A stretch of DNA of 64,000 nt, taken from positions 6,793 to 70,792 of the forward strand of contig JAFSEX010000005.1 in assembly GCA_017435465.1 (NCBI GenBank). Direction: 5' to 3'. The notes under the pieces are model-generated. The model saw only the letters and a program-made list of their open reading frames with translations, made no database searches and had not been told where the DNA came from. The position numbers and the translations under genes were made by a program. Of the stretch, positions 8,105 to 46,278 are shown piece by piece; position 1 is the first letter of the stretch, and each line of letters begins with the position of its first letter. This DNA comes from Bacilli bacterium. Lineage in GTDB: Bacteria > Bacillota_I > Bacilli_A > RF39 > UBA660.

Positions 8105-9211
8105 TTATTGGTGAATTTTTATGTTTATTAATTTTTCCCAAGGTAAATCTATATCTTTTCTTCCAAAATGACCATAACTAGCAATACTATAATATATTGG
8201 TTTTTGTAATTGTAATTCTTTTATAATATTTTTTACACTAAAATCAAAATTAGTATTAATAAAATTATAAATTTCTTCTAATGGTACTTTATTAGTATTG
8301 AATGTTTCTATATTTATAGATATTGGTTTTGTATTTCCTATCGCATAAGATACTCCTATTTCACAAACATCACATAGTTTATTATATACAATGTTTTTGG
8401 TAACATATCTTGCATAATAAGCCGCACTTCTATCTACTTTAGTTGGATCTTTACTACTAAAACATCCACCACCAATTTTGGCACTACCTCCGTATGAATC
8501 TACCACAATTTTTCTTCCAGTTGTACCACTATCTCCATATGGACCACCAATAGTAAATGAACCACTTGTATTTATTAATATTTGTGTTTGATTATCAATA
8601 TATTTTTTTGGTATTACTATATCTATAACTTTTTCTTTAATATAATTTTTCAATTCGGCTTGACTAATATTTTTAACATGCTGACTAGCAATAACAATTG
8701 TATTAATTCTTTTTGGAATATTATCTTCATATTATACAGATATTTGACTTTTTCCATCTGGCATTAGTGGGGAATTTTCATCTTCCTTTCTAACTTTTGT
8801 AAGTTGCATAGTTAATTTATTTGCAAGCAATATTGGAAGAGGCATATATTCTTTAGTTTCATTAGTAGCATAGCCAAACATTATACCTTGATCACCTGCA
8901 CAAATTCCATTTTTGTTAACAGCTCTATTAATCTCCCTAGATTGTTCACTCACTTTTACAATAACTTCAAAATCTTCATTATAACCAATATCCTTTAATA
9001 CCCACTTAGCAATACTCTCATAATCTAAATTAGCATTAGTAGTAGCCTCACCATAAATAAAAAGCAAGTTATCTTTTATTGTACATTCTACAGCCATTTT
9101 ACTGTTTTCATCAAATTCTAGAGCTGTATCTAGAATTTTGTCACTGATTTTATCACATATTTTATCTGGATGTCCTTCAGTAACTGATTCACTTGTTATT
9201 ATTTTTTTCAT
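8105..9211 (-). pseudogene. metK: S-adenosylmethionine synthetase interrupted by one in-frame TAA (complement of 8732-8734)
   Basis: The two track ORFs are the same reading frame. It reads ...PDGKSQISV-TAA-YEDNIPKRINTIVIASQH..., with the stop sitting where MetK proteins have Glu (TVEYD). ESVTEGHPDK and GGGCFSSKDPTKVDRSAAY motifs are intact. The start at 9211 follows SD AAGGAGG. Confidence 0.8.
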
Positions 9212-9242
9212 CTTATCCTCCTTCTTAGCTTTTACCAAAAAT

Positions 9243-9372
9243 AAAAAACTCTTGAAAGAGTTTTAATTTATCTTTATTTATACTCCTTCATCGGTATTAG
9301 CAGAACCACCTTACATATGCAGGTTGGTATGAGTTCATAGAGCTAATTCTCTCCCTCATTCTTGATAAAAGT
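9243..9372 (-). promoter_or_regulatory. SAM-I (S-box) riboswitch with intrinsic terminator, leader of metK
   Basis: The minus strand reads CTTTTATCAAGAATGAGGGAGAGAATTAGCTCTATGAACTCATACCAACC...GGTGGTTCTGCTAATACCGATGAAGGAG. A hairpin AAAACTCTTTCAAGAGTTTT plus T-run follows. This matches the S-box consensus as remembered. Confidence 0.75.
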
Positions 9373-10804: not shown

Positions 10805-10835
10805 AACCCATATCATATTATGATATGGGTTATTT
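10805..10835 (+). terminator. intrinsic terminator after the TsaC-like gene
   Basis: 13-bp stem AACCCATATCATA/TATGATATGGGTT followed by a T-rich tract. Confidence 0.7.
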
Positions 10836-10841
10836 ATAATT

Positions 10842-10920
10842 AAAAACGAACTATTACTAGTTCGATTCATTTCAATGGAGCGGTTAAGCTACAGCTTACG
10901 AACTAATTAGTTCTTTTTTT
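10842..10920 (-). ncRNA. candidate small RNA, repeat copy A (unknown family)
   Basis: Minus-strand TTGAAA-17 nt-TATAAT promoter (10955-10927). Two hairpins follow, then a single-stranded AACCGCUCCAUUGA segment and a terminator CGAACTAGTAATAGTTCG plus U-run. Confidence 0.5.
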
Positions 10921-11098
10921 GAGTTTATTATAAGACATTTAAAAATGATTTTCAATATTATGTATAAAAAGATTAGAAAAAGAAAAAATTCCATCCACAG
11001 TACAAAATTGTCGAAAAAAGAGATTTTGTTTAGTACAGTAAACAAAATTGACAAACATTAAAATTAATAGTATAATTAGTTTAGAAAAGAGGAATAGT

Positions 11099-12307
11099 AT
11101 GATTATTAGGGAAAAATACTTATCAAAGATAAGACCTTTTTATGATCAAGATTTAATTAAAGTTATTACTGGTATAAGAAGATGTGGAAAATCAGTTATT
11201 TTAAATCAGATAATAGATGAATTAAAAGAAAAAGGAATTAAAGATGAACAAATAATATATATTAATTTTGAATTTGAAAATTACTATAATCTTTGCAATC
11301 ATATAGAATTCAATAATTATATTGAAGATAAAATAAAAGATAATAAAAAATATTACCTGTTCTTTGATGAAATTCAAAAAGTTGATAAATGGGAATTAGC
11401 TGTTAATTCTTTTAAAGCGGTACATGGAGATAAGGTTTCAATATTTATAACTGGATCTAATAGTGATTTATTATCTGGAGAACTTGCTACTCATATTGCA
11501 GGTCGTTATGTAAGTTTTAAAATATATCCTTTTACTTTTAAAGAAGTTTGTGAATTAAAAAACATTACTGATAAAGATAAATATGAATTGCAAAATTATT
11601 TTGATGATTATATTGTTTGGGGTGGTATGCCACAAAGATTTTTGATGACTGATGAAGAACAAACAAGAACTTATTTATCGGACATTTATAATTCAATAGT
11701 TATTAAAGATATTGTAGAAAGATTTAAAATAAAAGATTTAGATTTATTTAATAGGATTGTTGAATATATTGTTACTACACCATCTCAAACTTTCTCAGCA
11801 GAAAATCTCTCAAACTATCTATTAAAAGATAATATTGAAGTTTCAAAAATAACAATATATAACTATTTGGAATATATGTGTAGAGCATTATTAATTAACA
11901 AAGCGGAAAGATATGATGTTAGAGGAAAGAGAATTTTAAATGGGAAATATAAATATTATTTAGCTGATTTAGGATTAGGGCAAATTATTAATAAAGAAAG
12001 AAAAAAACAAATGGGTGCTTATTTAGAAAATATAGTTTATAATGAATTAATATCTCGTGGATACGATGTTAAAGTGGGTACATTTGAAAATGGTGAAATA
12101 GACTTTATTGCAACAAAATTTGAAGAAAAATTATATTTTCAAGTTGCATACATTTTAGCAGATGAAGAAGTAATAGAAAGAGAATTTGGTGCATATAAAG
12201 GAATTGATGATAATTATCCTAAATATGTTATTACAATGGATAAATTTGATATGTCACAAAATGGAATAATTCATAAAAATATTATTGATTGGTTATTAGA
12301 AATCTAA
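11099..12307 (+). CDS. AAA-family ATPase of the AAA_14/DUF4143 type
   Basis: Walker A GIRRCGKS and Walker B LFFDEIQ. The start was moved to ATG 11099, behind SD AAGAGGAA and promoter TTGACA-17-TATAAT (11048-11076). Confidence 0.65.
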   Translation: MIIREKYLSKIRPFYDQDLIKVITGIRRCGKSVILNQIIDELKEKGIKDEQIIYINFEFENYYNLCNHIEFNNYIEDKIKDNKKYYLFFDEIQKVDKWELAVNSFKAVHGDKVSIFITGSNSDLLSGELATHIAGRYVSFKIYPFTFKEVCELKNITDKDKYELQNYFDDYIVWGGMPQRFLMTDEEQTRTYLSDIYNSIVIKDIVERFKIKDLDLFNRIVEYIVTTPSQTFSAENLSNYLLKDNIEVSKITIYNYLEYMCRALLINKAERYDVRGKRILNGKYKYYLADLGLGQIINKERKKQMGAYLENIVYNELISRGYDVKVGTFENGEIDFIATKFEEKLYFQVAYILADEEVIEREFGAYKGIDDNYPKYVITMDKFDMSQNGIIHKNIIDWLLEI

Positions 12308-12317
12308 AACAAAAAAA

Positions 12318-12350
12318 AGAAACACGGTATATGAACTGTGTTTCTTTTTT
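12318..12350 (+). terminator. intrinsic terminator after the ATPase gene
   Basis: Stem AGAAACAC...GTGTTTCT plus T-run. Confidence 0.7.
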
Positions 12351-12420
12351 ATGTGTATATACTATCAAAAAATATTATCATCGTATTCGACCACTTTTCG
12401 ATTGTAATAAATTTATGTAT

Positions 12421-12502
12421 AAAAAAACGAACTAAAAAAGTTCGACTAAATATCAAATGGAGCGGTTAAGTTACAACTTGCGAACTAATTAGTTCTCTTT
12501 CT
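12421..12502 (-). ncRNA. candidate small RNA, repeat copy B
   Basis: Same module as copy A: TTGAAA-17-TATAAT on the minus strand (12537-12509), hairpins, AACCGCUCCAUUUGA, and terminator CGAACTTTTTTAGTTCG plus U-run. Confidence 0.5.
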
Positions 12503-12663
12503 ATAATTATTATAAGACAATTAAAAATAATTTTCAATATTATGTATAAAAAGATTAGAAAAAATATTCCAAAATTTTCCAATATACATTGACAAATAAT
12601 GACAAATTTTATAATATAAGTCTTGAAAAGTTTTAACTTGTTAATGTGAGAGGGGAAATATTA

Positions 12664-12749
12664 ATGAGATTAGATACTGTTACAAATTTATATTTAATGT
12701 TTATTAATGAGGGTAGAAGTACATTATAGGGACTTTTGCCCTCTTTTTT
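12664..12749 (+). promoter_or_regulatory. 21-codon leader ORF overlapping an intrinsic terminator (attenuator) upstream of the GNAT/rSAM operon
   Basis: SD GAGAGGGG then ATG 12664, encoding MRLDTVTNLYLMFINEGRSTL with stop at 12727-12729. The last 7 sense codons form the 5' arm of a 12-bp hairpin (12709-12743) followed by TTTTTT. Confidence 0.5.
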
Positions 12750-12767
12750 GATAGGAGAATGATAAAG

Positions 12768-13229
12768 ATGAATTTTATAATAAGAAAAGCAGATGTAAAA
12801 GATGCAAAAATTGCTAATAACTTTTTAACAAAACTAATTCAGGATGAAAAAAAATATGACGATAATATTAATGAAAATTGCGTTGTACACACATTATATG
12901 AAAATATAATTGAAAACGAACAAAATTGTATTTTTATAGCAGAAAATAAAGGGATTATAATGGGATATCTATATGGATTTGTTTTAAATGGTGGAGATGC
13001 ATATATTGATGTTGTTACACAACTTGATGCAATGTTCGTTGATGAAGAATATAGAAAACTTGGTATTGGTAATGCACTTATTGATGAATTTAAAAAATGG
13101 TCAAAACAAAAAAATGCAAAATACATTGAATTAAAAGTATGTAATAATAATGAGAACGCAATTTCATTATACAAAAAAAATGGATTTGAAAATGTTAAAA
13201 CTATTATGACATTAGAATTGGGGGATTAG
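12768..13229 (+). CDS. GNAT family N-acetyltransferase
   Basis: The acetyl-CoA site pattern RKLGIGNALIDEF and an NGF tail are present. Start ATG 12768 chosen because it lies 9 nt after SD AGGAGA; ATG 12759 abuts the SD. Confidence 0.7.
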   Translation: MNFIIRKADVKDAKIANNFLTKLIQDEKKYDDNINENCVVHTLYENIIENEQNCIFIAENKGIIMGYLYGFVLNGGDAYIDVVTQLDAMFVDEEYRKLGIGNALIDEFKKWSKQKNAKYIELKVCNNNENAISLYKKNGFENVKTIMTLELGD

Positions 13230-13230
13230 T

Positions 13231-14571
13231 ATGAAATTATCAAAATATTTTCATTATATTGAATTAGAAAACAACATATATGCAGTTTATAATTCATTAA
13301 TAATGGATGTAGTTTTTGTAAATAAATCTAAACTTGATGAAATAATAAATATTTCAGTTGATGACGAAGAAAAAGTAAAATTACAAAATTTAGGAATATA
13401 TATTACAAGTAAAGAACAGGATGAAGAAGCATTACAAATTGTAAAAAATAGATATGATGAAGTTACAGGTAAAGTTAATATTATGTATTTAATACTTTCA
13501 TCTGCATGTAATCTAGCATGTAAATATTGTTTTATAGAAAATTGTACATTTAATAATAAAGTAGAAATAAATATGAATTTAGATACAGTAAAAAATGCTA
13601 TTACTAAATATGATAATTATTTAAAAAGAGAAAATTTAGAAGAAGGATTAATCATTTTTTATGGTGGAGAACCACTTGTAAATTGGGATGCAATAGTTAC
13701 TGCTATTGAACTTGCAAAAGAATTAAAATCTCCTATAAAATTTTCAATGGTTACTAATGCAACTTTACTTACTGCTGAAAAGATTAAGTATTTAACAGAA
13801 AATAATGTTGAGATAGGAATTTCAATAGATGGACCTAAAGCATTAAACGATAAAAATAGAATTTATAGAACAAACGAAAAAAGTGTATATGATGAAGTAA
13901 TATCAAAATTCCCATTATTAAAAGCAGAAGAATGTAAATTTGGATTATCGATAACAGTTTCTGAAGATTTTTTGGATCAACAAGATGAAGTTTTAGATTG
14001 GTTAGAGCATCTTGGCGTAAGTAGCATATTTTATAATTTATATCACTATACTTGTTATGATGAAAATTGGGAAGAATATTACAATAGAGCAAGTAAATTT
14101 TTAATGAAATCATATGAAAAATTAGCAAGTCATAATATATATGATGGTAGATTAAATAGAAAAATAGATAGTATAATTGATAGTGAATTTAAATTTGCAG
14201 ATTGCGGAGCAATTGGCGGAAATCAACTTGCAATAAAACCTAGTGGTGATGTATGTATTTGTCATGGATATTTAAAAACTGATAAATATGTAATAGGTAA
14301 TGTTAATAAACAATCTATTGATGAATTAATGGATACTGATGAAATAAGATTCTGGAAAAGAAGAAGTACAATATATAATGATGAATGTTTAAATTGTGAA
14401 GCTATTTATACATGTGGAGGCGGATGTGCAATTCAAGCCGAAGCATTGTTTGGAAATAGAAATGAAATAGACAAACCATTTTGTATTCACACTAAAAGTG
14501 CATTAAGGTGGATACTTCAAAGAAGTTATAATAAAATGGTAGAAAATGAAAAGGAGGTGATAAAATGTTAG
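13231..14571 (+). CDS. radical SAM/SPASM-domain peptide maturase with N-terminal RRE-like region
   Basis: CNLACKYC CX3CX2C cluster. C-terminal Cys-rich SPASM region (CGAIGG...CICHG...CLNCEAIYTCGGGCAIQA...FCIH). About 85 aa lie before the rSAM core. Confidence 0.8.
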   Translation: MKLSKYFHYIELENNIYAVYNSLIMDVVFVNKSKLDEIINISVDDEEKVKLQNLGIYITSKEQDEEALQIVKNRYDEVTGKVNIMYLILSSACNLACKYCFIENCTFNNKVEINMNLDTVKNAITKYDNYLKRENLEEGLIIFYGGEPLVNWDAIVTAIELAKELKSPIKFSMVTNATLLTAEKIKYLTENNVEIGISIDGPKALNDKNRIYRTNEKSVYDEVISKFPLLKAEECKFGLSITVSEDFLDQQDEVLDWLEHLGVSSIFYNLYHYTCYDENWEEYYNRASKFLMKSYEKLASHNIYDGRLNRKIDSIIDSEFKFADCGAIGGNQLAIKPSGDVCICHGYLKTDKYVIGNVNKQSIDELMDTDEIRFWKRRSTIYNDECLNCEAIYTCGGGCAIQAEALFGNRNEIDKPFCIHTKSALRWILQRSYNKMVENEKEVIKC

Positions 14572-14744
14572 AAATGAATAAAAAAGAAGTTGCAAAAAAA
14601 TTCAGAATTGATGCAAAAGCATATGCTTCTGTATGTAACAGTTGTGCATGTGGAGGTGGAACATCTAGTTGCAATACAACTTGTAAAGGTTGTAAAGACA
14701 AAAGCGAAAACATAAAATCAGTAAAGAATGTATATGCAAAATAA
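14565..14744 (+). CDS. 59-aa Cys-rich precursor peptide candidate (six Cys in 20 residues); below the 60-aa cutoff of the ORF track
   Basis: SD AAGGAGGTGATAAA then ATG, overlapping the maturase stop by 7 nt. Encodes MLEMNKKEVAKKFRIDAKAYASVCNSCACGGGTSSCNTTCKGCKDKSENIKSVKNVYAK, followed by a terminator. Confidence 0.7.
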   Translation: MLEMNKKEVAKKFRIDAKAYASVCNSCACGGGTSSCNTTCKGCKDKSENIKSVKNVYAK

Positions 14745-14752
14745 TTAAATTT

Positions 14753-14780
14753 ATAAGGTTATCTAATAACCTTATTTTAT
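14753..14780 (+). terminator. intrinsic terminator after the peptide gene
   Basis: Stem ATAAGGTTA/TAACCTTAT with a 5-nt loop, then TTTT. Confidence 0.65.
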
Positions 14781-14800
14781 TATACAGGGGGGGAATACTA

Positions 14801-15784
14801 ATGATTATAGATACTCATAGTCATATTGGTAATGATTTTTATTGTGGCAATATAAAAATACAAGATTATATACAATTTTGCAAAAAAAATAAAATAGACA
14901 TTGGATTTCTAATGCCTACACCTTGGCCACAATACAAAGATAATAATCAATATGTTACATCTTTGATATGGGAACATGACAACTATATTAAAAAGAATTA
15001 TTATTCATTAATAAACGGAAATAAAGTATCAATTGAAAGTAATCCATATAAAAATGTTAATTATAATTGTTTTGATGAAATTAATAAAAATCATTGTAGC
15101 GATATTCAATTATATTTTGTACCACTTATTCATGGAGTATTAGATAATGCAAATTATTTAGAAAAGATGTTAGGTGAATTAAACCCAAAAGCTGTAAAAA
15201 TGCATGGGTTTGGAAGTGGATTTTCTCCAACTGAAATCAAATCTGATATTGTTGAAATTTTGAAATATTATGATATACCAATTATACTTCATACATCAGT
15301 ATATAATTATGATTATGGATATGGGGCAGACACAAAATATTGGAGAAATGAATGTCATCCCTATAAATGGATAGAATTTTTACTTAAGAATAATTTAAAG
15401 GGTGTTCTAAATCATGGGGCATGTTTACATAATGAAACAATTGATTTAGTAAATAAATCCGAAAAAATAATGGTGGCGTTAGGTCCTGACTTAGATATTT
15501 CTAAAGATTTTTTTAAAGTTGATATACCTAAAGAAACATATTTGAAAATAGAATACCTAAAATACTTAAAACAAAAGTTGGTATCTACAAAAATATTATT
15601 TGATATCGATTATAATTGGAATGTTGATGAAAATAATAATATAGATAATAACTCTATTCAAAGAGTAAGTGAAACATGGAGCGAAAATGAGTTGGATAAC
15701 ATTTTGTATAACAATGCATTAGAGTTCTTTAAACTGTCACACAATGAAGTTAAGGCAAAAATCTTAAAAAACACAAAAAATTAG
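14801..15784 (+). CDS. metal-dependent amidohydrolase-fold (TIM barrel) protein
   Basis: N-terminal IIDTHSHIG metal-binding motif with internal H residues (KMHGF, ILHTS). SD AGGGGGGGA. Confidence 0.55.
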   Translation: MIIDTHSHIGNDFYCGNIKIQDYIQFCKKNKIDIGFLMPTPWPQYKDNNQYVTSLIWEHDNYIKKNYYSLINGNKVSIESNPYKNVNYNCFDEINKNHCSDIQLYFVPLIHGVLDNANYLEKMLGELNPKAVKMHGFGSGFSPTEIKSDIVEILKYYDIPIILHTSVYNYDYGYGADTKYWRNECHPYKWIEFLLKNNLKGVLNHGACLHNETIDLVNKSEKIMVALGPDLDISKDFFKVDIPKETYLKIEYLKYLKQKLVSTKILFDIDYNWNVDENNNIDNNSIQRVSETWSENELDNILYNNALEFFKLSHNEVKAKILKNTKN

Positions 15785-15812: not shown

Positions 15813-15897
15813 AAAAATAAAAACCCTTATTTTATAAGGGTTTGTTTTCATATGGAGCGGTTAAGTTACAACTTGCGAACTAATTAGTTCTCTTTCT
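15813..15897 (-). ncRNA. candidate small RNA, repeat copy C
   Basis: TTGAAA-17-TATAAT on the minus strand (15932-15904). The body is identical to copy B through AACCGCUCCAUAUGA. The terminator is a different hairpin, AAACCCTTATAAAATAAGGGTTT, plus U-run. Confidence 0.5.
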
Positions 15898-15996
15898 GGA
15901 TTTATTATATAATAATTGTTATAATTTTTCAAGGCGTATGGCAAATTTTAATCATTTATAGTATAATTAACTTTAAAGTGTTCAGGAGATTTAGGT

Positions 15997-17739: not shown

Positions 17740-17915
17740 TGTTTATTATATTCTAGATGATAATGAAAATGTAGTTAATAGGGAAATTTTAAATATATAA
17801 GATAATTGATGGTAATTAGCCTAAAAATGTTATTACAATAGATATATTTGACATACCCCAAGATGGAATAATTCATAAAAACAATATAGATTGAGTATTA
17901 GAAAAATATAATAAA
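17740..17915 (+). pseudogene. degenerate 3' remnant of a second AAA/DUF4143 ATPase gene plus its terminator
   Basis: 17800-17960 aligns by eye with 12195-12350 (GGAATAATTCATAAAAA..., AAGAAACAC...GTGTTTCTTTTTT). No intact frame remains. Confidence 0.6.
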
Positions 17916-18016
17916 AAAAAGAAACACGTTATTTCAACCTTATAAACTGTGTTTCTTTTTTTTATGTATTTAAAATTAATATAAAATATTTCTTTAATTA
18001 TAACTTAAAAATGGGA

Positions 18017-18415: not shown

Positions 18416-18457
18416 ACTTCAAATTAACTTGAAGTGTGCTATAATATATATTGAAGT
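18416..18457. promoter_or_regulatory. candidate operator/promoter between the XRE gene and the surface locus
   Basis: Perfect palindrome ACTTCAA-N6-TTGAAGT (18416-18435), a third TTGAAGT half-site at 18451, and TATAAT at 18440-18445. Confidence 0.4.
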
Positions 18458-18536
18458 AATAATTATAATTGAGAATGAAATATTAAAATGTCAATTATTG
18501 TATTTGTTACTAATTTTATATAGGAGGAAGTGTGAT

Positions 18537-21500
18537 ATGAAAAAGAAAAAAGGTTTGATTTTATTTTCAGTAATTGCTATAACTACAATATTATCTTTTG
18601 GGATATATAAAGTTTTAGCAGAACAACAATTTAATACTATTGCAACTATTGATAATGGAATAATTAATGATTTAAACGAAGAGTTTACATTAACTATTAA
18701 TGCAGATGATTTGCCAGGGGAAGGGTTAGCGTCAGGTCAATTTTATGTTGATTATAATCCAGATATATTCCAAGTAGAAACAACTAATGGAGAAATATCT
18801 GATAGTTCAATAGAATTTGGACAGGACAGAGATAATAATTTTTCTCACTCAATAAAACAATCAGACAATATAGGAAGAGTAACTGTTCTATATTATGATA
18901 ATAGTGCTAATTTAAATCAACCACTAGAAAATGGTGAGTTATTTAAATTGAAATTTAAATATATAGGCAACTTACTTGAACAAATTGATGATGAGCATGA
19001 AGAATTAATAACAATTTCTGGTGAAGGATTTTCAACAATACAAAGGGAAACAACACAAAATGGTGAAAATCTAGATATTGTCGATCTTGCTTCAAAATTT
19101 AATAATGTAAATGTTGTTATTAGAAATAGAGAATTAAAAATCAACAATGTAACTTCTAATGATGACAAAATTTATAATGGTAGAGTTAATAATTTATCAT
19201 TAAATTTAACATCAATTGATTTTGATGAAAATACTGAAATTTCATTTGATATTCAAAGAGAAAATTACTATGGAGATTTAAACTTTGATGGAATAATTGA
19301 TTCAGTAGATGTAAATTATCTTGAAAGTTATTTGGCAAAAAGTAGATTTTTATCAACAATTCAATATAAAGCAGCTGACGTAAATGGAGATAATAATTTA
19401 ACACAATCTGATGTGATTATTATTCAACAATATATAAGTAATACTTCCGCTTCACATTATAAAACAGGAGAATTGATGTCGGAGGCATCAAAAAATGAAA
19501 CAAACAAATTTACTGTTTCATCAAATAATGTGGGAAGTCCAATAGATGGAATATCAACAATAAATATAAATTTAGATACATTAAATACTATAGAAGTGGG
19601 AACATATAAAGTTGTTGCCAACATTGGTGATGTAGAATCTAATGTTTATACATTCCATGTTAAAGAACAACCTGTAACAAAAGTAGAACTTGATTCAAAC
19701 GAATATACTGTAGGAATTAATAATACTAAACAGGCAAATGCAACTATAACGCCAATTAATGCTCATGTTAAAAATATTAAATGGAGTGTTGAAGATGAAA
19801 ATATTGCTACAGTTGATGAATTTGGTGTAATAACAGGTGTAAGTGAAGGTACAACTTTACTATATGCAAAAAGTATGGATGGAACATTAATTCAAACAAG
19901 TGCAACGATAAATGTTGTTAATCAAATAATCAGTATAGATTCAAATGCTTTACAATATACACCTAGCAAATCTTATGGTGCATCATCTACAGGTAAAATA
20001 TACGATAAAGATGGTGGAACAATTAAAGGGAATGTTGCTATCGCAAATACTACAACAGATAATCTAAGTTATGTACTTGTAAGAAGTGATGATAATAATC
20101 AAACAAATATCATAGATAAAGTTAATGCTAATGTTACTTTAGCACAAGCAGGAAATATACATGAATTATCAATTACAATACCTGAAGAAACATTAGAAGC
20201 AGGAAGTTATGATTTCAAAATTATAAATGGAGAAAACATTGAGTCTAATATAATTAAAATAGTGATTAATGATTATATACCTGTAACAGGAGTGAATTTA
20301 AAACATAATGGTCAAAGTATTACAGGAATTAATATCTTAAAAGGAGACCAAGTTGAATTTGTTGCAGAAGTATTACCAGAAAATGCAACTAATAAAGATT
20401 TAATTTGGGGATTATCTGGAAATAATAAATTTATTCAAACTGAAACATCAGATACTTATCATCAAACAATTAAAGCAAATGATGTTGGTGATGGGACATT
20501 ATCTATAAAAAGTGCAGAAAATGAAAGTATTTCTAAATCTATTAAAATAAATGTAATTGATCCAACAGATACAGTTGGAACATCAGAAGTAACAAGTAAT
20601 ATTGTTGGAAATAATGTTATTGATGAAAGATTTGGTGGAGTATTTACAAATATAATCAATTTTACTGACGTAGAAGACAATACTACTTTAGAAGTAAGTT
20701 TATATAATGGTAATAATACATTAATTGAAACTGATAAATATGATGTTGAATCTGATTTAACAGTTATTAATAATAGTGCTGAAATATCTATAGAAATAGG
20801 GGATAATCAACTATCATCAGGAACTTATACAGTTAAATATAAATACATTTTAAATGATGTATATAAAACTGAAAAAACAGGTTCTTATGAAATTGTTATT
20901 CATGAATTTATACCTATTGAAACAATAGAAAGCACAGTTGAAAAAATAACTCTAATTAAAGGTCAAACATATACTTTTAGTGATTATACTGTTGCTCCAT
21001 CTAATGCAACATATAAAGTATTAAAATTTGAAGTTGATAATGAAAATATAAGTTTATCAACATGGTCAAAAGCAGAATTAACTGCAAATGCTACAGGTAC
21101 ATCAATATTAACTATCAAAACTCTTGATGGTAGTGAAAAAACAAAAGAAATATTAGTAGAAGTAATTGAACATGATATACATTCTGTTCATTTTGAAGTT
21201 GATTTAAATAATAAAAAAGTAAAAAGAATAAACGATAAATTAACTTATAATAATTTATTAGATAAGATTAATAAACATAATGAAATAACAACAAAAGCAT
21301 TTAGAAATGATGTAGAAATTAATTATGAAAAAGATTTAATTGGAACAGGTACATTGCTAAAAACATATTTAAATAATAAATTATTTAATACATACACAAT
21401 GATTGTAGATGGAGATATAGATGGTAATGGTAAAGTTGTTGCAAACGACATATTATTTGTTAAATCACACATATTGAAAAAGCAAACTTTAGAGGGAATA

Positions 21501-21608
21501 TATTTTGAAGCGGGAGATATTGATAAAAATGGTTCAGCAAATGCTACTGATATTTTATATATGAAAAGATATATTTTAAGTAAGTCTGATAATGTGTGGG
21601 GTGATTAA
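18537..21608 (+). CDS. large secreted protein: N-terminal cohesin-like module, internal dockerin, several Big_2-like repeats, C-terminal dockerin
   Basis: Start at ATG 18537 behind SD TAGGAGGAAG, with a signal peptide. Cohesin-like GLASGQFYVDYNPDIF, Ca-binding repeats DLNFDGIIDSVD / DVNGDNNLTQSD, and a C-terminal pair DIDGNGKVVANDIL / DIDKNGSANATDIL. Big_2-like repeats include ATITPINA...KWSVEDENIATVD. Confidence 0.7.
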   Translation: MKKKKGLILFSVIAITTILSFGIYKVLAEQQFNTIATIDNGIINDLNEEFTLTINADDLPGEGLASGQFYVDYNPDIFQVETTNGEISDSSIEFGQDRDNNFSHSIKQSDNIGRVTVLYYDNSANLNQPLENGELFKLKFKYIGNLLEQIDDEHEELITISGEGFSTIQRETTQNGENLDIVDLASKFNNVNVVIRNRELKINNVTSNDDKIYNGRVNNLSLNLTSIDFDENTEISFDIQRENYYGDLNFDGIIDSVDVNYLESYLAKSRFLSTIQYKAADVNGDNNLTQSDVIIIQQYISNTSASHYKTGELMSEASKNETNKFTVSSNNVGSPIDGISTININLDTLNTIEVGTYKVVANIGDVESNVYTFHVKEQPVTKVELDSNEYTVGINNTKQANATITPINAHVKNIKWSVEDENIATVDEFGVITGVSEGTTLLYAKSMDGTLIQTSATINVVNQIISIDSNALQYTPSKSYGASSTGKIYDKDGGTIKGNVAIANTTTDNLSYVLVRSDDNNQTNIIDKVNANVTLAQAGNIHELSITIPEETLEAGSYDFKIINGENIESNIIKIVINDYIPVTGVNLKHNGQSITGINILKGDQVEFVAEVLPENATNKDLIWGLSGNNKFIQTETSDTYHQTIKANDVGDGTLSIKSAENESISKSIKINVIDPTDTVGTSEVTSNIVGNNVIDERFGGVFTNIINFTDVEDNTTLEVSLYNGNNTLIETDKYDVESDLTVINNSAEISIEIGDNQLSSGTYTVKYKYILNDVYKTEKTGSYEIVIHEFIPIETIESTVEKITLIKGQTYTFSDYTVAPSNATYKVLKFEVDNENISLSTWSKAELTANATGTSILTIKTLDGSEKTKEILVEVIEHDIHSVHFEVDLNNKKVKRINDKLTYNNLLDKINKHNEITTKAFRNDVEINYEKDLIGTGTLLKTYLNNKLFNTYTMIVDGDIDGNGKVVANDILFVKSHILKKQTLEGIYFEAGDIDKNGSANATDILYMKRYILSKSDNVWGD

Positions 21609-21609
21609 G

Positions 21610-22515
21610 TTGTTTAAGAAAATATTATGGATCGTTCCTTTGGTTATTTTACTTTCAACAACTAATGTATATGCTGCATCATTTGATATGGATTTGGTAA
21701 TAGACCAAACAACAGTAACTAAAGGTGAAGATTTAAATGTAAAATTATCTAATAAAAATTTAGATAATAATGGATTAGCATCAGGTCAATTTTATATTGA
21801 GTACGATACAAACTATTATAATTTCAGTTGTGATGATGTAACATATAAACGAAATGTTACATCTTCTGAAATTGATTGTAATGTGTCTAATAACCAAATA
21901 ATTATTATGTATGTTGATGAAGATGCAGGAGATAGTCCAATAACTAACGGAGAATTTTTAAATTTAAAATTCAACGTTAAAACAGGTGTTACAACTACAA
22001 CACCAACTACTTTTAAATTAAGTGGTGAAGGATTTTCAAGTGTTAATGGGAGTAAGATTGTTAATTTAACGTCTAATTCAAATATCACTAAAACTGTTTC
22101 AATAGAAAAACAAAAAAATTCAGATATTTATTTAGGAACATTAAGTATTGATGGATATAATATAGGATTTGATAAAAATAAATTTGAATATTCAATTGAA
22201 GTAGAAAACAATGTATCTAAAATAAATATAAAGGCAACTACTAATACTTCAACATCTACTGTAGTTGGTAGTGGAGAAAAAGAATTAGTAGTTGGGGATA
22301 ATAAATTTACATTAACAGTAACCGCAGAAAATGGTTCAACACAAAACTATGTTATTAATGTAAAAAGGTTAGATGTTGCAAAAGATACAGGAACAATTAA
22401 AGAAAATCCTCAAACAGGAGTAAATCATAGTGTAACAGCTATTGTGTTCATACTTATAGCAGGTGTTGCTACATTATATATTACAAGAAAGAGAAATTTC
22501 TTTCCAAAGATTTAA
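21610..22515 (+). CDS. cell-wall-anchored cohesin-like scaffold with cadherin-like beta-sandwich module and NPQTG sorting signal
   Basis: Signal peptide, GLASGQFYIEYDTNYY, and a LSIDGYNIGFDKNKFEYSIEV module. NPQTG (22405-22419) is followed by a hydrophobic helix and an RKRNFFPKI tail. The start is TTG 21610 or ATG 21592. Confidence 0.65.
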   Translation: MFKKILWIVPLVILLSTTNVYAASFDMDLVIDQTTVTKGEDLNVKLSNKNLDNNGLASGQFYIEYDTNYYNFSCDDVTYKRNVTSSEIDCNVSNNQIIIMYVDEDAGDSPITNGEFLNLKFNVKTGVTTTTPTTFKLSGEGFSSVNGSKIVNLTSNSNITKTVSIEKQKNSDIYLGTLSIDGYNIGFDKNKFEYSIEVENNVSKINIKATTNTSTSTVVGSGEKELVVGDNKFTLTVTAENGSTQNYVINVKRLDVAKDTGTIKENPQTGVNHSVTAIVFILIAGVATLYITRKRNFFPKI

Positions 22516-22524
22516 GGAGAATTT

Positions 22525-23592
22525 ATGAAGAAAGTATTTTTAATGATTCTTCCAATATTAATGTTATTTATGCCAACAGTTGTAAATGCTAGTACTAATT
22601 TTAATACTAGCATTTCTGTTAGTAGTAGTGATATTAAATTGGATAAAGAGTTTAGTATATCAATTAATTTATCAAATTTAAGTAGTTCAGGTTTAGCATC
22701 TGGACAATATTATATCTCATACGATAAAAGTAAAATGTCGTATTTAGGATATTCAGTAGGACAAAATAAACCTGCAGCAGATTATAGTGTAAGTGATAAC
22801 AATGGTAATATTGTTGTATTATATGTAGATAATACAGCAGGAGAAAACATATTAAAAAATGGTGTGTTTGCTACTTTAAGATTTAAAGCAATAAAAGAGG
22901 GAACAGGTAGTATTAATTTGTCTGGTGAGGGTTTTGCAACTATTACTGATTCAATTATTGATTTATCAACAAATACTGCTAATAAATCAATTACAATAAC
23001 AAAAGAAGTTGTTGTTCCGCCGGCACAAGAGGAAAATAAAAATAATAACAATAGCAATAATACAAACAACAATAGTAATTCAAATAATACTTCAAATAAA
23101 ACTGAAACTAAAAAAGAAGAAGTAAAAAAAGAAGAATCAAAATTAAGTAATGATGCATTATTAAAAAAATTGGAAATAAAGGAATTAGAATTAAAGTTTA
23201 GTAGTGATAAAACTGATTATAAAATATCAGTACCTTATGAAACTACTAAATTAAATATAAGTTATGAGACTTCACATGATAAAGCAACTGTAGAATTAGA
23301 TAATAAACCATTACAAGTAGGTAACAATGAAATAACAATTAAAGTAATTGCTGAAGATAAAACAGAAAAAATATATAAAATAACAGTTACAAGAAATGAA
23401 GAACTACCTGTTATAGATTTAGATGATGATAACGAAAAGAATGATATAGAAATAGAAAAACAAGATAATGCTGAACCTAAAGAGAATAATACAACAAAAA
23501 TTATTGTTTGTTCAATAGTAATAATATTATCATTAGTACTTGGAGGATATGCATTATATATTACTATTAAAAAGGATGTGAAAGAAGTATGA
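22525..23592 (+). CDS. membrane-anchored cohesin-like scaffold with N/K/E-rich linker and cadherin-like module
   Basis: Signal peptide, GLASGQYYISYDKSKM, an Asn-rich low-complexity linker, LEIKELELKFSSDKTDYKISV, and a C-terminal TM helix. Confidence 0.6.
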   Translation: MKKVFLMILPILMLFMPTVVNASTNFNTSISVSSSDIKLDKEFSISINLSNLSSSGLASGQYYISYDKSKMSYLGYSVGQNKPAADYSVSDNNGNIVVLYVDNTAGENILKNGVFATLRFKAIKEGTGSINLSGEGFATITDSIIDLSTNTANKSITITKEVVVPPAQEENKNNNNSNNTNNNSNSNNTSNKTETKKEEVKKEESKLSNDALLKKLEIKELELKFSSDKTDYKISVPYETTKLNISYETSHDKATVELDNKPLQVGNNEITIKVIAEDKTEKIYKITVTRNEELPVIDLDDDNEKNDIEIEKQDNAEPKENNTTKIIVCSIVIILSLVLGGYALYITIKKDVKEV

Positions 23593-26500
23593 AAAAATGG
23601 AAAAACAAAAAATTAATTATCATCTTATCATTCTTTTTCGTCTTTGCACTAGTAAGTGCGTTTATAAATAATGCATTTTTTAAACCTACTAAATTAAATG
23701 CATTTATTACCGCAAAAATTTACAAAAGTCCTTCAAATATTTCATTTAAAGATGATGCGTTATATAAATGCGTTATTGATGCTTATAACATTCAAAATAA
23801 TACAGAAGAACCATATACAACAAGTTTGTCTGAAACTCAATTGTCAACAATAGAAAATTTAGCTTGTTCTGGAACAATATATGAAGTTGATGGAATTGAA
23901 ACTTTAACTAATTTAAAGAAATTAGATATTATTCTTGATACCTATAGATATTACAATATAGATATTTCAAATAAAGAGTTACAAGAAATTAATATTATTG
24001 CGTCAGATAATCTATTATTAAATCTTGAACAAGCGACAAAACTTACAAAATTACATGTTGATGTAGGAGAAATATTAGGTACTTTAGATTTAAGTAATAA
24101 CATTGATCTGACTGATTTAAAAATAGACACTTCCAAATATGGGACTTATACAGGTGATAAATTGATACTAAATAATAATATTAATTTAAAAAGTCTAGAT
24201 TTAAATATTACTTCATATTCTTTTGGTGAAGTCCTTGATATATCATCCAATACCAACCTAGAAAAATTAAAGATACATGATGGATATATGAGTGAAATTA
24301 TTTTTAGTAATTATCAAGACCTAAAAGAAATAGACTTTAGTTTAGGTGATTTAGCTACCGAAGTAAATTTAAATAAAATGCCTAATTTGGAAAAATTAAA
24401 AATCCATAACAATGGGTCTGAAATACTTGGGTTTTCTGAGTTAACTAAATTAAAAGAAATAAATTTAAATTATAATACATATATAGATACATTGGATTTG
24501 AGTAATAGTTCATATTTGGAATCAGCAAATTTAATTGGAAATGGATTTATTTCTGTTACACTAGATAGTGATAGCTTAGAAACAGTCAATGTATCTAACA
24601 ACAATAATAATAATTTATCTATATCAAGTAATAAATTGAATGATGTTACAATAAGTGGAAGTAAATTAAAAACATTAGTGTTTAACAATAATACTATTGA
24701 TACACTTAATTTAAGTTCAACTCCATTATTAAATTCGATTACTATTGATAGTTCTGCACTTAAAAATATAAATATTCAAGATAGTTCTGAACCATTATCA
24801 AGTTTAACTGTTTCTATTTCCGGAACAGAAGAAATGAGTCTTAATGGTAAAGTAAATGAATTAAATTTAGAAAGTCCAACCCTTAAAAATTTGAACGTAA
24901 GTAATTTAGGTTTAATTAATTTAAATATTGATAATTCTACTGGTCTTGAAATATTAAATGTAAATAATAATAATTTAGATTCATTGGATTTAAATAATAA
25001 TAGTCAAATTAAAAATATAAATTTAAGCAATAATTCTATTAGTGAATTAGATATTTCATCAAATACAGAACTTTCAGAATTAATTGCAAACAGTAATAAA
25101 ATAAGTAGTATAGACTTATCAAATAATACAAAATTAGCTGTTTTAGAATTAAATGATAATCTGTTAAATGACATTGATTTTGCTAATAACAATAGATTGA
25201 TATCTTTAAAAATAAATGAAAATAATTTAAAAACACTAGATTTCAAAAATTGTACTTATTTTGAATCATTATCGGCAACTAACAATTCAAATTTAGAATA
25301 TGTTAATTTGGAAAATAATAAATATGTTGAAACAATTGATTTGTTTAGCAGTCTTAATTGTGATGGTGAACAGGATGAATATAATTCTTGTCTAAGTAAT
25401 AATGCTTTTAGAGGCAAGGTGAAATTACATCCAGAAACAAATACTATTTCATTTAGTGCATCTTCATATAAGAGAACAGGAGTTTTTAGTTCTGTACATC
25501 CCTTAATCTATAGTTGTCCAAGTCGTACATATGATTTTGCATATAACTTTTTTGAGAATTATAATCCACTTGAAAACACACATACTCTTGATTTATCTGC
25601 TGGAAATGTATTTAGAAAATATGATGGAAATATTAGATATTGTGAAACTGCTTTCTATATTGACGGTGGTCTTTACAGGGAAACAAATGCTGTTTATTTT
25701 ATAGAATTAGCGTCAAATTCTTCATATTTTATTGATACTGATGAAAATTTTATAGATATATATGATGAAAAAATTTCAAACAATATATTGGATAATTTAT
25801 CATTAAATTATGGTGAAATGAGAATTAATAATGATAAATTACAAGTGTTATTCGACAATGAAGTAATAAAAGAATTTGACATTAGGACAACCTATGTTTC
25901 ACCAATCAATATAAATAATAAAGTTTTATCGAATACAATTAACAATGATAATAGCTGGTATAAAGGTTATAATGGAAATTTTTCATTTGATATAATCGCT
26001 AATGATGAAAATCTTGATTTAAATACTTTAAACGTTAGTGTTATTAAAAATAATAGTGATGTTAGTCATATATTTAATATTGATAAAGAAATTGTTGATG
26101 ATAAATTAACTATTAATATTTATAATATATCTGCGTCATGTGATATTGGGGATTATTATGTTAATATTAGTGATAGTAATGAGGTAATGGATACTATACT
26201 GTTTACAATATCAGAACCTACAAAAGTTAGTAATATTACTACAGAAAATATTAGAACAGTTAATGTTGATGAAATTATTGATATTAATTATAAAATTTTA
26301 CCAGAAAATGCAACCAATAAACAATTAGAATTAATAATTGCCGATGAAAGTATTGCAATAATTGAAAATGGTAAGATAAAAGGTTTAAAAGAAGGTGAAA
26401 CAACCTTAACATTAAAAGCAACTGATGGTAGTAATATTGTAAAAACAATCACTATAAAAGTTATTGATTTTGATATTAAAACTGATAAATATAATATAGA

Positions 26501-26900
26501 TGATAATTTAGTAATTAAAAAAATAAAAGACAAATTATTATTTGATAATTTCATTAATGATTTTACAGTTAATAGTGATATAAATATTAAGGTATTTAAT
26601 AATGATGTTGAAATTGATTATACAAAATCATTAGGAACAGGACACAAATTAAAAACATATTCTAATGATGAATTATTAAATGAATATACATTAATTGTGT
26701 CTGGTGATATAAATGGTGATGGACAATCTAATGCAGCTGATATTATATTTATGAAAAGTCATATATTAGGTAAAAGTACTTTAGATGGTATTTTATTTAA
26801 AGCAGGAGATATTGATGAAAACAATTCTGTAAATGCTACTGATATTATATATTTGAAAAGTTATATTTTGGGTAAAACTAATAATGTATGGAGTAGTTAA
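23589..26900 (+). CDS. large secreted leucine-rich-repeat protein with Big_2-like domain and C-terminal dockerin
   Basis: There are about 20 LxxLxLxxN-type repeats (residues ~100-560), and Big_2-like ILPENATNKQLELIIADESIAIIENGKIKGLKEGETTL. The dockerin pair is DINGDGQSNAADII / DIDENNSVNATDII. The last ~130 aa are homologous to the C terminus of 18537-21608. Confidence 0.7.
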   Translation: MKKWKNKKLIIILSFFFVFALVSAFINNAFFKPTKLNAFITAKIYKSPSNISFKDDALYKCVIDAYNIQNNTEEPYTTSLSETQLSTIENLACSGTIYEVDGIETLTNLKKLDIILDTYRYYNIDISNKELQEINIIASDNLLLNLEQATKLTKLHVDVGEILGTLDLSNNIDLTDLKIDTSKYGTYTGDKLILNNNINLKSLDLNITSYSFGEVLDISSNTNLEKLKIHDGYMSEIIFSNYQDLKEIDFSLGDLATEVNLNKMPNLEKLKIHNNGSEILGFSELTKLKEINLNYNTYIDTLDLSNSSYLESANLIGNGFISVTLDSDSLETVNVSNNNNNNLSISSNKLNDVTISGSKLKTLVFNNNTIDTLNLSSTPLLNSITIDSSALKNINIQDSSEPLSSLTVSISGTEEMSLNGKVNELNLESPTLKNLNVSNLGLINLNIDNSTGLEILNVNNNNLDSLDLNNNSQIKNINLSNNSISELDISSNTELSELIANSNKISSIDLSNNTKLAVLELNDNLLNDIDFANNNRLISLKINENNLKTLDFKNCTYFESLSATNNSNLEYVNLENNKYVETIDLFSSLNCDGEQDEYNSCLSNNAFRGKVKLHPETNTISFSASSYKRTGVFSSVHPLIYSCPSRTYDFAYNFFENYNPLENTHTLDLSAGNVFRKYDGNIRYCETAFYIDGGLYRETNAVYFIELASNSSYFIDTDENFIDIYDEKISNNILDNLSLNYGEMRINNDKLQVLFDNEVIKEFDIRTTYVSPININNKVLSNTINNDNSWYKGYNGNFSFDIIANDENLDLNTLNVSVIKNNSDVSHIFNIDKEIVDDKLTINIYNISASCDIGDYYVNISDSNEVMDTILFTISEPTKVSNITTENIRTVNVDEIIDINYKILPENATNKQLELIIADESIAIIENGKIKGLKEGETTLTLKATDGSNIVKTITIKVIDFDIKTDKYNIDDNLVIKKIKDKLLFDNFINDFTVNSDINIKVFNNDVEIDYTKSLGTGHKLKTYSNDELLNEYTLIVSGDINGDGQSNAADIIFMKSHILGKSTLDGILFKAGDIDENNSVNATDIIYLKSYILGKTNNVWSS

Positions 26901-45576: not shown

Positions 45577-46278
45577 ATGAAGATATTAGTTGCTTGTGAA
45601 GAAAGCCAAGCCGTTACAAAAGAATTGAGAAAACTAGGACACGAAGCATATAGTTGTGATTTAATTGAATGTTCTGGGGGGCATCCAGAATGGCATATTA
45701 AACAAGATGTTATTCCATTGTTAAATGGTAAATGTTCTTTTTATACTTGTGATGGTATTCAACATAAAATATTAAGTAAGTGGGATTTAATTATAGCACA
45801 TCCGCCTTGTACTCATTTATCTTCTACTGGACAATGGGCTTATAAAAAAGGCAAACCAATTTCTTTAAGGGAAGATGCGGTAGATTTTTTTATGAAATTT
45901 GTAAATGCTGATTGTGATAGGATTGCTATTGAAAATCCAGTGGGTATAATGTCAACTAGATATCAAAAACCAAATCAAATTATTCATCCGTGGCAATTTG
46001 GTGATGAAGCAGAAAAAACAACTTGTTTGTGGCTTAAAGGGTTACCTAAATTACAACCAACAAAAATAGTAGGCAAAGGAGAAACATTTGATTATGTAAA
46101 TCCTAAAACTGGTGGTATAAAACATTATCCAAAGTGGATGATGGATGCTTTAAAAGCTAAAACACCAGAAGAAAGGTCAAGATTAAGAAGTAAAACATTT
46201 CCAGGAATAGCACTTGCTATGGCCACACAATGGACTAATGTACCAAACTTAATAGATTTGGTAGAAAAGATAGATTAG
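45577..46278 (+). CDS. short phage-type DNA cytosine-5 methyltransferase-like protein
   Basis: KILVACEESQ N terminus, a PPC motif (AHPPCTHLS) and an ENP motif (IENPVGIMS). Flanked by 24-bp direct repeats. Confidence 0.5.
   Translation: MKILVACEESQAVTKELRKLGHEAYSCDLIECSGGHPEWHIKQDVIPLLNGKCSFYTCDGIQHKILSKWDLIIAHPPCTHLSSTGQWAYKKGKPISLREDAVDFFMKFVNADCDRIAIENPVGIMSTRYQKPNQIIHPWQFGDEAEKTTCLWLKGLPKLQPTKIVGKGETFDYVNPKTGGIKHYPKWMMDALKAKTPEERSRLRSKTFPGIALAMATQWTNVPNLIDLVEKID

Follow-up and report, generated by a model that had tools for sequence, protein, structure and literature searches.

What does a radical S-adenosylmethionine (rSAM) enzyme act on when its gene runs directly into that of a small cysteine-rich peptide? 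This question is raised by a locus in contig JAFSEX010000005.1 of a Bacilli bacterium (GTDB lineage RF39; UBA660; assembly GCA_017435465.1), of which we analyzed positions 6793 to 70,792, a stretch of 64,000 nt hereafter called the window. Four tightly packed plus-strand open reading frames (ORFs) at approximately 12.6–15.8 kb of the window form one unit and encode a GNAT acetyltransferase, an rSAM enzyme with a SPASM domain, a 59-aa peptide with six cysteines, and a 327-aa protein. An earlier note had proposed here a cassette for a peptide that is made on the ribosome and modified after translation (RiPP). Our analysis shows that the four genes are a genuine conserved operon of uncultured gut Bacilli. 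By analogy with characterized systems, we consider it likely that they make up a self-contained RiPP-type operon, representing a new family of SCIFF-like peptides cross-linked by an rSAM enzyme—probably through thioethers—with acetylation and hydrolysis as additional steps.

Conservation and Genomic Contexts of the Operon

The locus was compared, using hidden Markov models (HMMs) built from alignments of the families of the module, with the contigs encoding homologues of the peptide and with 80 loci of GTDB genomes encoding relatives of the rSAM enzyme (maturase). The order GNAT–rSAM–peptide–amidohydrolase was found in 19 of the 19 loci with enough flanking sequence, the window counted. A match to the peptide HMM was located directly downstream of the maturase gene in all close loci (18/18), the GNAT gene adjoined the rSAM gene in every complete close locus (19/19), and the hydrolase gene adjoined the peptide gene wherever it was found (18/18). 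The small ORF is thus conserved beside orthologous maturases, a point that could have spoken against the earlier note, and the GNAT and the amidohydrolase, which were described there as co-transcribed, are both co-inherited with the maturase and the peptide. In the loci scanned, the four genes are accompanied by no transporter or exporter, no immunity gene, and no classical protease.

The hosts are uncultured Bacilli from the animal and human gut, e.g., Candidatus Aphodocola. The module occupies at least four distinct genomic neighborhoods. In the uvrA-context loci (L001–L008 and L026), it is preceded by uvrB, uvrA, and an ArpU-like gene and followed by a holin-family gene, lgt, trxB, whiA, and parAB. 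In locus L089, it lies between argS and the gene of an AMP-binding enzyme; in locus L090, rsgA–rpe are located upstream, and the contig ends after the peptide gene. In the window, genes of a Sua5/YrdC protein and an AAA_14 ATPase precede the module, and genes of a 567-aa protein with no assigned function and of cohesin/dockerin proteins follow it. The presence of the same four-gene order in several contexts indicates one transferable functional unit, inherited and relocated together. The G+C content of the cassette (0.23–0.27) is in line with the rest of the window (approximately 25%), with no compositional anomaly.

In the uvrA-context loci, a 137–138-aa ArpU/MG284-like putative transcription factor was encoded immediately 5′ of the GNAT gene (e.g., L001:5721–6137). 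This gene is absent from the window, where a long 5′ leader takes its place.

A Putative Six-Cysteine Precursor under Protein-Level Selection

The peptide ORF (14565–14744, plus strand; 59 aa) shares 7 nt with the end of the maturase gene (stop at 14571), and this start–stop overlap recurs in other loci. As read from the sequence, its Shine–Dalgarno site AAGGAGGTG (AGGAGG; 14551–14559, plus strand) lies 5–6 nt upstream, within the 3′ end of the maturase gene. The cysteines—C24, C27, C29, C36, C40, and C43—have the spacing C-x2-C-x-C-x6-C-x3-C-x2-C, which occurs in no other credible ORF of the window. The 7-nt overlap, the Shine–Dalgarno site, and the cysteine spacing had been correctly described in the earlier note. 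Its statement that the ORF was uncalled is true of an ORF track with a 60-aa cutoff; in GenBank, the peptide is annotated as the hypothetical protein MBQ7139922.1 (locus tag IJO32_00285). Several proteins encoded in the window have identical counterparts in a GenBank MAG, under the locus tags IJO32_00285 to IJO32_00295.

Homologues of the peptide, found among 5.8 billion proteins, formed 40 clusters of 47–85 aa (nearly all 58–61 aa) with 56–93% identity. The alignment divides the peptide into a variable leader (residues 1–20, free to vary), a core with the six cysteines invariant (residues 21–46), and a Lys-rich tail (residues 47–59) ending with a conserved Y57-x-K. Positions 22–24, 26–30, 32, 36, 37, and 39–45 are invariant, and the core consensus is ASVC(N/S)SCACGxG...CN(T/S)TCKGCKD. 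In the extended family, C24, C29, C40, K41, and Y57 remain invariant, S22, G42, C43, and D45 are nearly so, and V23 is also invariant or nearly so.

The ratio of nonsynonymous to synonymous divergence (pN/pS), calculated from 14 distinct gene sequences, was 0.87 for the leader, 0.08 for the core, and 0.34 for the tail. Synonymous divergence of the core was near saturation (pS 0.66); together with the core pN/pS value, this indicates that what is conserved is the protein sequence rather than an element of the DNA or RNA. The peptide is, therefore, a genuine gene under purifying selection, and a chance ORF is ruled out. This result bears on the reading that the small ORF is either a chance ORF or an unmodified cysteine-rich metal-binding mini-protein, with the rSAM enzyme acting on some other substrate. 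Six cysteines in CxxC-like pairs could indeed bind Zn or an Fe–S cluster, and the ORF matches no family model. However, besides the coding-level selection, the translational coupling to the maturase is conserved, the maturase is predicted to carry a peptide-binding domain, and the pairing of peptide and maturase persists in metagenome-assembled genomes (MAGs) of Bacilli, Clostridia, Alphaproteobacteria, and archaea while the peptide sequence changes. We regard this reading as very improbable and the peptide as likely to be the substrate of the rSAM enzyme.

Sequence comparison indicates that the peptide family is small: its profile retrieved only 13 clusters from 1.84 billion representative proteins and gave no link to another known precursor family in that collection. 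Against NCBIfam and Pfam at E ≤ 10, the peptide matched no family, the sole match being a chance similarity to the 'CKGC' of ARMET.

One metagenomic member of the family (P0040, 85 aa) joins the maturase C-terminus '...EAIYTCGGG' to the peptide 'GGGTSSCNTTCKGC...'. The fusion apparently arose by a deletion between the CGGG stretches that the two genes have in common as a microhomology, and neither gene would be left intact in the strain concerned.

Maturase with a Predicted Peptide-Binding Domain

The rSAM enzyme (13231–14571, plus strand; 446 aa) contains the Pfam domains Radical_SAM (PF04055, 51.7 bits) and SPASM (PF13186, 35.6 bits). Its CX3CX2C motif (C93, C97, C100) is invariant in 44 homologues; among the seven SPASM cysteines, C325, C344, C386, C389, C399, and C418 are invariant in the same set and C395 is conserved in at least 90%. 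Seven is the number of cysteines expected of a SPASM domain with two auxiliary 4Fe-4S clusters. These data confirm the motif and the C-terminal cysteine clusters reported in the earlier note, where an N-terminal region resembling a RiPP recognition element (RRE) was also noticed. In the AlphaFold2 (AF2) model of the enzyme (mean predicted local distance difference test (pLDDT) 91.9), approximately residues 1–80 form a domain (pLDDT ~95) consisting of three strands (7–11, 16–21, 28–31) and three helices (32–39, 45–53, 61–76), the order seen in the winged helix of an RRE. Foldseek aligned the model over its full length, this β3–α3 domain included, with CteB (5WHY/5WGG) and TigE (8VPO), both of which bear an N-terminal RRE (PMC10878394). 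The modeled fold thus supports an RRE-like domain at the N-terminus, for which peptide binding is predicted, and, with it, the RiPP-type reading of the cassette: an RRE-bearing rSAM/SPASM enzyme beside a co-conserved cysteine-rich precursor.

By sequence, the closest solved structures were CteB (E = 2e-31) and TigE (1.7e-25, aligned from residue 10). In NCBIfam, only peptide maturases were among the nearest families: FibroRumin (TIGR04136, 231.1 bits against a cut-off of 400), PapB (NF047865, 164.8 against 340), DynA (134), the nif11 and sulfatase maturases (129 each), SCIFF (TIGR03974, 128.5 against 425), and QhpD (127 against 453). As a result of the HMM check suggested in the earlier note, no curated NCBIfam family fits either the maturase or the peptide.

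Accessory Acetyltransferase and Predicted Metal Hydrolase

The GNAT ORF (12759–13229, plus strand) encodes 156 aa if translated from 12759. The protein is, judging by its domain score, a bona fide member of Acetyltransf_1 (PF00583, 62.1 bits against a cut-off of 20.7), and the acetyl-CoA motif R99-K-L-G102-I-G104, fitting R/Q-x-x-G-x-G/A, was read from its sequence. Its best NCBIfam match was RimI (TIGR01575, 52.9 bits, under the cut-off of 86.4); RimI and N-terminal acetyltransferases were the nearest named relatives, all below their cut-offs. Translation probably begins at 12768, the second ATG: for a start at 12759, the Shine–Dalgarno site AGGAG (12753–12757) would be too near, the alignment with orthologues begins at M4, and the protein collection lacks a product starting at 12759. 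The GNAT of the earlier note is, accordingly, upheld as a Pfam-confirmed and co-inherited protein, but its start should probably be moved.

The 327-aa protein (14801–15784, plus strand) had been called an amidohydrolase because of a DTHSH motif. It gave no significant match in Pfam or NCBIfam (PF04909: 14.6 bits, E = 0.029, against a gathering threshold of 26.4); a precomputed PF04909 match was present in one distant homologue only among the 65 clusters of this tiny family, and the family profile found nothing among the PDB sequences. The AF2 model, built from a 39-sequence alignment, was of high confidence (pLDDT 94, predicted TM-score 0.92). Foldseek gave 52 PDB matches to it at E ≤ 1e-3, and, among those listed, almost all belonged to the amidohydrolase superfamily, including the Amidohydrolase II structures 2F6K and 2FFI, ACMSD, and dihydroorotases (E from 5e-9 to 1e-6, TM-score ~0.52–0.65). 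Residues H6, H8, K133, H164, H205, and D268 are invariant in the 39 sequences and fall where the predicted strands 1, 4, 5, 6, and 8 end. Binuclear-metal amide hydrolases hold their metals with HxH on β1, Lys on β4, His on β5, His on β6, and Asp on β8. The model thus presents the protein as a very divergent TIM-barrel metal hydrolase of the amidohydrolase superfamily with a confidently modeled (β/α)8 fold, so that both the fold and the active-site residues support the original label. The earlier note had also found no protease in the cassette. Classical proteases are indeed lacking; however, this hydrolase could be a trimming enzyme, and a sister clade has an HExxH protein.

A 694-aa member of the amidohydrolase cluster (P0246) was considered as an informative fusion and rejected: it looks like a read-through into an unrelated downstream ORF.

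Wider Maturase Clade

Maturases with 38–55% identity to that of the window were found in MAGs of Clostridia, other Bacilli, and Alphaproteobacteria, and relatives with approximately 30% identity in Woesearchaeota. In 33 of the 37 loci with a maturase at least 38% identical, a small cysteine-containing peptide was encoded next to it. Most of these peptides end with a Y-containing basic tail, and the only feature common to all of them is cysteine. FibroRumin was the top curated family for every maturase of the wider clade, with scores of 187–241 bits, all below the cut-off.

A sister clade of Clostridia (loci L021, L023, and L025) encodes, in rearranged order, a GNAT and, in place of the amidohydrolase, a 252–255-aa HExxH protein. 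The persistence of GNAT linkage through this rearrangement argues for a real functional link, and the exchange of one putative hydrolase for an unrelated one suggests that the pathway requires hydrolysis. The HExxH proteins (L021:2043–2801, L023:7914–8681, and L025:7914–8681) have the motif LHECCHF or LHESCHF and no match in Pfam or NCBIfam. The one from L021 (252 aa) was tried as an amidohydrolase homologue and rejected, since hhalign comparison with the amidohydrolase profile indicated that the two are not homologous.

In loci with peptides of the 'CTCSNCNC' type, a homologue of RlmA-like rRNA methyltransferases precedes the maturase, its stop overlapping the maturase start, and many of these loci have a second methyltransferase. 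The RlmA-like gene (23S rRNA G745/G748 type; 136 bits, cut-off 303) was located upstream of maturases with 38–42% identity in L029–L031, L033, L035, L037, L039, and L041–L044; it was often accompanied by a second class I methyltransferase gene, with its stop overlapping or abutting the next start. Its product could be a tailoring enzyme or, of greater interest, confer self-resistance against a ribosome-targeting product. Locus L027 carries a B12-rSAM enzyme. Such differing tailoring genes around orthologous maturases are a pattern typical of a diversifying RiPP family. Two loci, L026 and L043, belong to the same MAG (HGM10828), so that two paralogous systems are present in one genome: a CNTTCKGC-type system that includes a GNAT and an amidohydrolase, and a CTCSNCNC-type system that includes methyltransferases.

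Comparison with Characterized Systems

Among the known systems, SCIFF (ScfA/ScfB; CteA/CteB; Tte1186a/Tte1186) is alike in several respects. It consists of one small six-cysteine precursor and a maturase with RRE, rSAM, and SPASM parts, and CteB has the closest solved structure to the present maturase. In SCIFF loci, the precursor gene is located immediately upstream of the maturase gene and the cysteine cluster lies at the C-terminus of the peptide; the open site of auxiliary cluster I (Aux I) in CteB binds a substrate cysteine. In the present system, by contrast, the precursor is encoded downstream of the maturase, the cysteine spacing differs, a conserved 16-aa Lys-rich tail follows the cysteine cluster, GNAT and amidohydrolase are co-inherited, and the hosts are uncultured Bacilli rather than Clostridia. 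The maturase score for TIGR03974 is also far below its cut-off, as given above, and the peptide, with no match of any kind in NCBIfam at E ≤ 10, has none to the SCIFF precursor model, which we take to be TIGR03973 and assume to be in the library. The departure from the SCIFF pattern noticed in the earlier note is thus well founded. SCIFF loci likewise lack a transporter, protease, or immunity gene, their core is highly conserved across species, and their setting is housekeeping-like (PMC8326336).

The FibroRumin maturase family (TIGR04136) scores best and aligns nearly full length, the N-terminal domain included. The present maturase, however, is far below its cut-off (231.1 against 400 bits), and the peptide matches no NCBIfam precursor model. 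The literature search gave nothing on a FibroRumin system, which is, therefore, set apart here by the maturase score and the precursor models only.

PapB (freyrasin) and QhpD (QhpC) form β- and γ-thioethers from Cys to Asp or Glu, i.e., ranthipeptide chemistry. In ranthipeptides, the Cys sulfur is bonded to a carbon of the acceptor residue other than the α-carbon, which is the one bonded in sactipeptides. PapB ranks second among the families of the maturase and QhpD is close; moreover, a near-invariant acidic residue (D45; Glu in L021) follows the C-K-G-C of the present peptide. In contrast, the maturase is below both cut-offs (340 and 453 bits), repeated CxxxD motifs are absent from the peptide, and it offers a single acidic acceptor candidate, at i+2 and i+5 from cysteines. 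In quinohemoprotein amine dehydrogenase, the subunit QhpC carries thioether cross-links that the rSAM enzyme QhpD introduces. By comparison, the cross-linked peptide might stay inside the cell instead of being released as a natural product and serve the amidohydrolase-fold protein as a small subunit or cofactor-like partner, with the GNAT regulating or capping it. The rank of QhpD (127 bits), the tiny hydrolase family adjoining the peptide gene in 18/18 loci, the missing exporter and protease, the near-invariant core, and the housekeeping neighborhoods in small-genome organisms are in keeping with such a partnership. We nevertheless find it improbable: CKGC-type peptides and orthologous maturases occur without the amidohydrolase in L018–L021, L023, and L025, a leaky terminator probably separates the peptide and hydrolase genes, and the hydrolase keeps a complete set of catalytic metal ligands of its own.

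Returning to the cross-linked peptide as a product in itself, N37-T-T-C40 of the core, as well as N25-S-C27, corresponds to the NxxC motif of the streptococcal NxxcB/NxxcA systems, which form Cys–Asn β-thioethers (PMC8326336). N37, however, is not conserved in the extended family.

The cyclopropylglycine synthases TigE and TvgB are similar in full-length sequence and structure, the RRE included, and introduce the question of whether the rSAM enzyme might use a chemistry other than thioether formation: C–C links or cyclopropanes (as TigE/TvgB), formylglycine (as anSME), epimerization, or a K41/Y57 cross-link. TigE (8VPO) is as close as CteB in full-length sequence and structure, the NCBIfam scores for anSME, DynA, and nif11-type maturases are similar, and V23, K41, and Y57 vary little or not at all in the extended family, all of which favor such chemistry. 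On the other hand, the GYW motif, strictly conserved and diagnostic in cyclopropyl synthases, where its Tyr ligates Aux I (PMC10878394), is absent here. The GYW of TigE aligns to YDGRLN of the present maturase, on which ground the cyclopropyl synthase reading was rejected; repeated Val/Ile motifs are also absent from the precursor. In addition, cysteine is the sole feature common to the paired peptides of the wider clade, and CteB and SuiB are likewise reported to have seven SPASM cysteines (PMC10878394). A non-thioether modification of the precursor is thus rather unlikely, and thioethers are slightly favored, by analogy, as the cross-links.

The literature search found no mention of the core motifs of the peptide or of a set of rSAM/SPASM enzyme, GNAT, precursor, and amidohydrolase; on ranthipeptides with an acetyltransferase, it gave genome-mining papers only, none of them on the present system. 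The precursor family, the maturase clade, and the amidohydrolase-fold partner are all without a curated model in the databases compared. Uncharacterized rSAM RiPP families are numerous, and the system resembles, in its logic, the ribosomal peptide natural products already described; nothing in it breaks the known paradigm.

Proposed Maturation and Function

In the proposed pathway, the RRE would bind the precursor, probably via the conserved leader start M-x-x-L-(D/N)-K and possibly also via the Y-x-K tail. SAM would be cleaved, and the 5′-deoxyadenosyl radical would take a hydrogen atom from an acceptor residue of the core. A core cysteine at the open Aux I site could then close a thioether ring, as in CteB, PapB, and QhpD (PMC8326336). 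The best candidates for the ring would be the conserved C40/C43 with D45 or T39; C24 and C29 are the other cysteines conserved family-wide. The GNAT may acetylate an amine, be it that of a new N-terminus or that of an invariant lysine (K41, K44, or K46), and the metal hydrolase may cut an amide bond, whereby the leader or tail would be trimmed or the acetyl group taken off again. The roles of these two enzymes are guesses, each somewhat short of an even chance.

Several observations weigh against the interpretation of the locus as a SCIFF-like thioether system with acetylation and hydrolysis. The leader evolves nearly neutrally though it is the usual ligand of an RRE, the maturase reaches the cut-off of no NCBIfam family, and TigE, an enzyme forming C–C bonds, is approximately as similar to it as CteB. 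The thioether assignment is drawn wholly from homology. The hydrolase has no sequence-level relative of known function, its substrate being a guess. Finally, in the next clade out (L018–L020), CKGC-type peptides are encoded without GNAT or amidohydrolase genes, which makes both enzymes accessory to the core reaction.

Regarding function, the missing exporter, immunity gene, and classical protease, the strongly conserved core, and the housekeeping setting make a SCIFF-like physiological or signaling peptide likelier than a classical bacteriocin. For SCIFF itself, wide conservation was argued to speak against an antimicrobial role, and a role in quorum sensing was reported (PMC8326336).

Predicted Regulatory Signals of the Operon

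A promoter-like site TTGACA-17-TAATAT (12589–12617, plus strand), matching the consensus at 10 of the 12 positions scanned, is kept together with the following leader in L090, and we infer from its sequence that it acts as the operon promoter. The 5′ leader (12618–12758, plus strand) contains a 21-codon upstream ORF (12664–12729), encoding MRLDTVTNLYLMFINEGRSTL, and a hairpin with a T-run directly before the GNAT Shine–Dalgarno site. The arms of the hairpin, folded by RNAfold, are located at 12709–12720 and 12732–12743, followed by the T-run at 12744–12749, which ends 10 nt before the GNAT start region. The leader is 85% identical in the closest relative, L090 (4759–4922), where one compensatory change of the stem, G–C to A–T, was found; Rfam gave no match to it at E ≤ 1. 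The hairpin may be a transcription attenuator, a candidate suggested by its predicted fold.

After the peptide stop, an A+T-rich hairpin (14753–14775; −8.3 kcal/mol, RNAfold) is followed by a T-run, the whole element occupying 14753–14782 of the plus strand. Hairpins were found in the same position in the other loci folded, with the T-run visible in nine of them, and the element is a probable leaky terminator ahead of the hydrolase gene. The terminator attributed to the peptide in the earlier note is, accordingly, present and conserved in position, but it is weak and was not called by the consensus terminator scan. A bidirectional terminator-like hairpin (15821–15843), called by the terminator scan, closes the operon.

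Repeats and Neighboring Genes in the Window

An intergenic module of approximately 100–150 nt is repeated in three copies (10830–10981, 12413–12563, and 15848–15917), which are 85–90% identical according to repeat search, alignment, and blastn. The second copy lies upstream and the third downstream of the cassette, which they bracket. The repeats behind the 'accessory, repeat-bounded context' of the earlier note are thus real, while 'accessory' is only partly right because the module of four genes is lineage-conserved and usually located among housekeeping genes. On the minus strand, each repeat copy contains a strong sigma70-like promoter (TTGAAA-17-TATAAT), approximately 60 conserved nt with the palindrome GAACTAATTAGTTC, and a terminator-like hairpin with a T-run, and thus represents a candidate family of ~80-nt small RNAs. 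Rfam gave no match to the repeat region. The repeat overlaps small hydrophobic minus-strand ORFs (10896–11054 and 12466–12582), and neither of the closest relatives, L089 and L090, contains it.

The 3′ end of the AAA_14/DUF4143 ATPase gene with its terminator (12193–12378) is repeated at 17795–17989, downstream of the 567-aa ORF, with 83% and 78% identity. These direct repeats bracket a 5.6-kb segment, comprising the RiPP module and the gene of the 567-aa protein, which suggests an insertion or a duplication-mediated rearrangement. The mechanically called TTG start of the ATPase ORF (11048–12307) coincides with a perfect promoter match, TTGACA-17-TATAAT; the true start is probably an internal Met at residue 18 (MIIREKYL...).

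Farther downstream, four consecutive surface proteins with dockerin, cohesin, Big_2, and cadherin-like domains, i.e., cellulosome-style parts, are encoded at 18429–26900. A prophage or its remnant occupies approximately 39000–64000 and includes genes of a DNA methyltransferase (45577–46278), an anti-repressor (49330–50064), terminase large subunit (52714–54078), portal (54291–55412), minor head (55421–56989), and major head (57973–58857) proteins, and a tape measure protein (61757–63481), as well as a tRNA gene (52079–52151). A SAM riboswitch (RF00162, 55.5 bits) was found upstream of the cassette, at 9285–9371 of the minus strand, preceding a minus-strand ORF (8732–9238).

Implications

One precursor and three enzymes make a small tractable set for heterologous reconstitution, which could reveal a new cross-link pattern, a new role for the GNAT–amidohydrolase pair in RiPP maturation, and what a divergent branch of the amidohydrolases does. 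The wider clade, with its RlmA-like methyltransferases, B12-rSAM enzyme, and HExxH protein, is a natural series for studying the diversification of RiPP pathways.

A more far-reaching interpretation, which we consider unlikely, is that the product is not a secreted antibiotic but a cross-linked mini-protein with a housekeeping role inside the cell—the equivalent of SCIFF in Bacilli, with an acetylation–hydrolysis switch formed by the GNAT and the amidohydrolase—or a QhpC-like subunit of the amidohydrolase-fold enzyme. If true, it would be, to our knowledge, a new functional category for rSAM-modified peptides, and the locus would provide a compact genetic route to the long-open question of the function of SCIFF-like peptides. 

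Apart from that interpretation, the core conserved across species at a SCIFF-like level, the compact unit moving among housekeeping loci, and the uncultured gut Bacilli hosts mark the system as one that serves the cell in a conserved function, not as a weapon of single strains.

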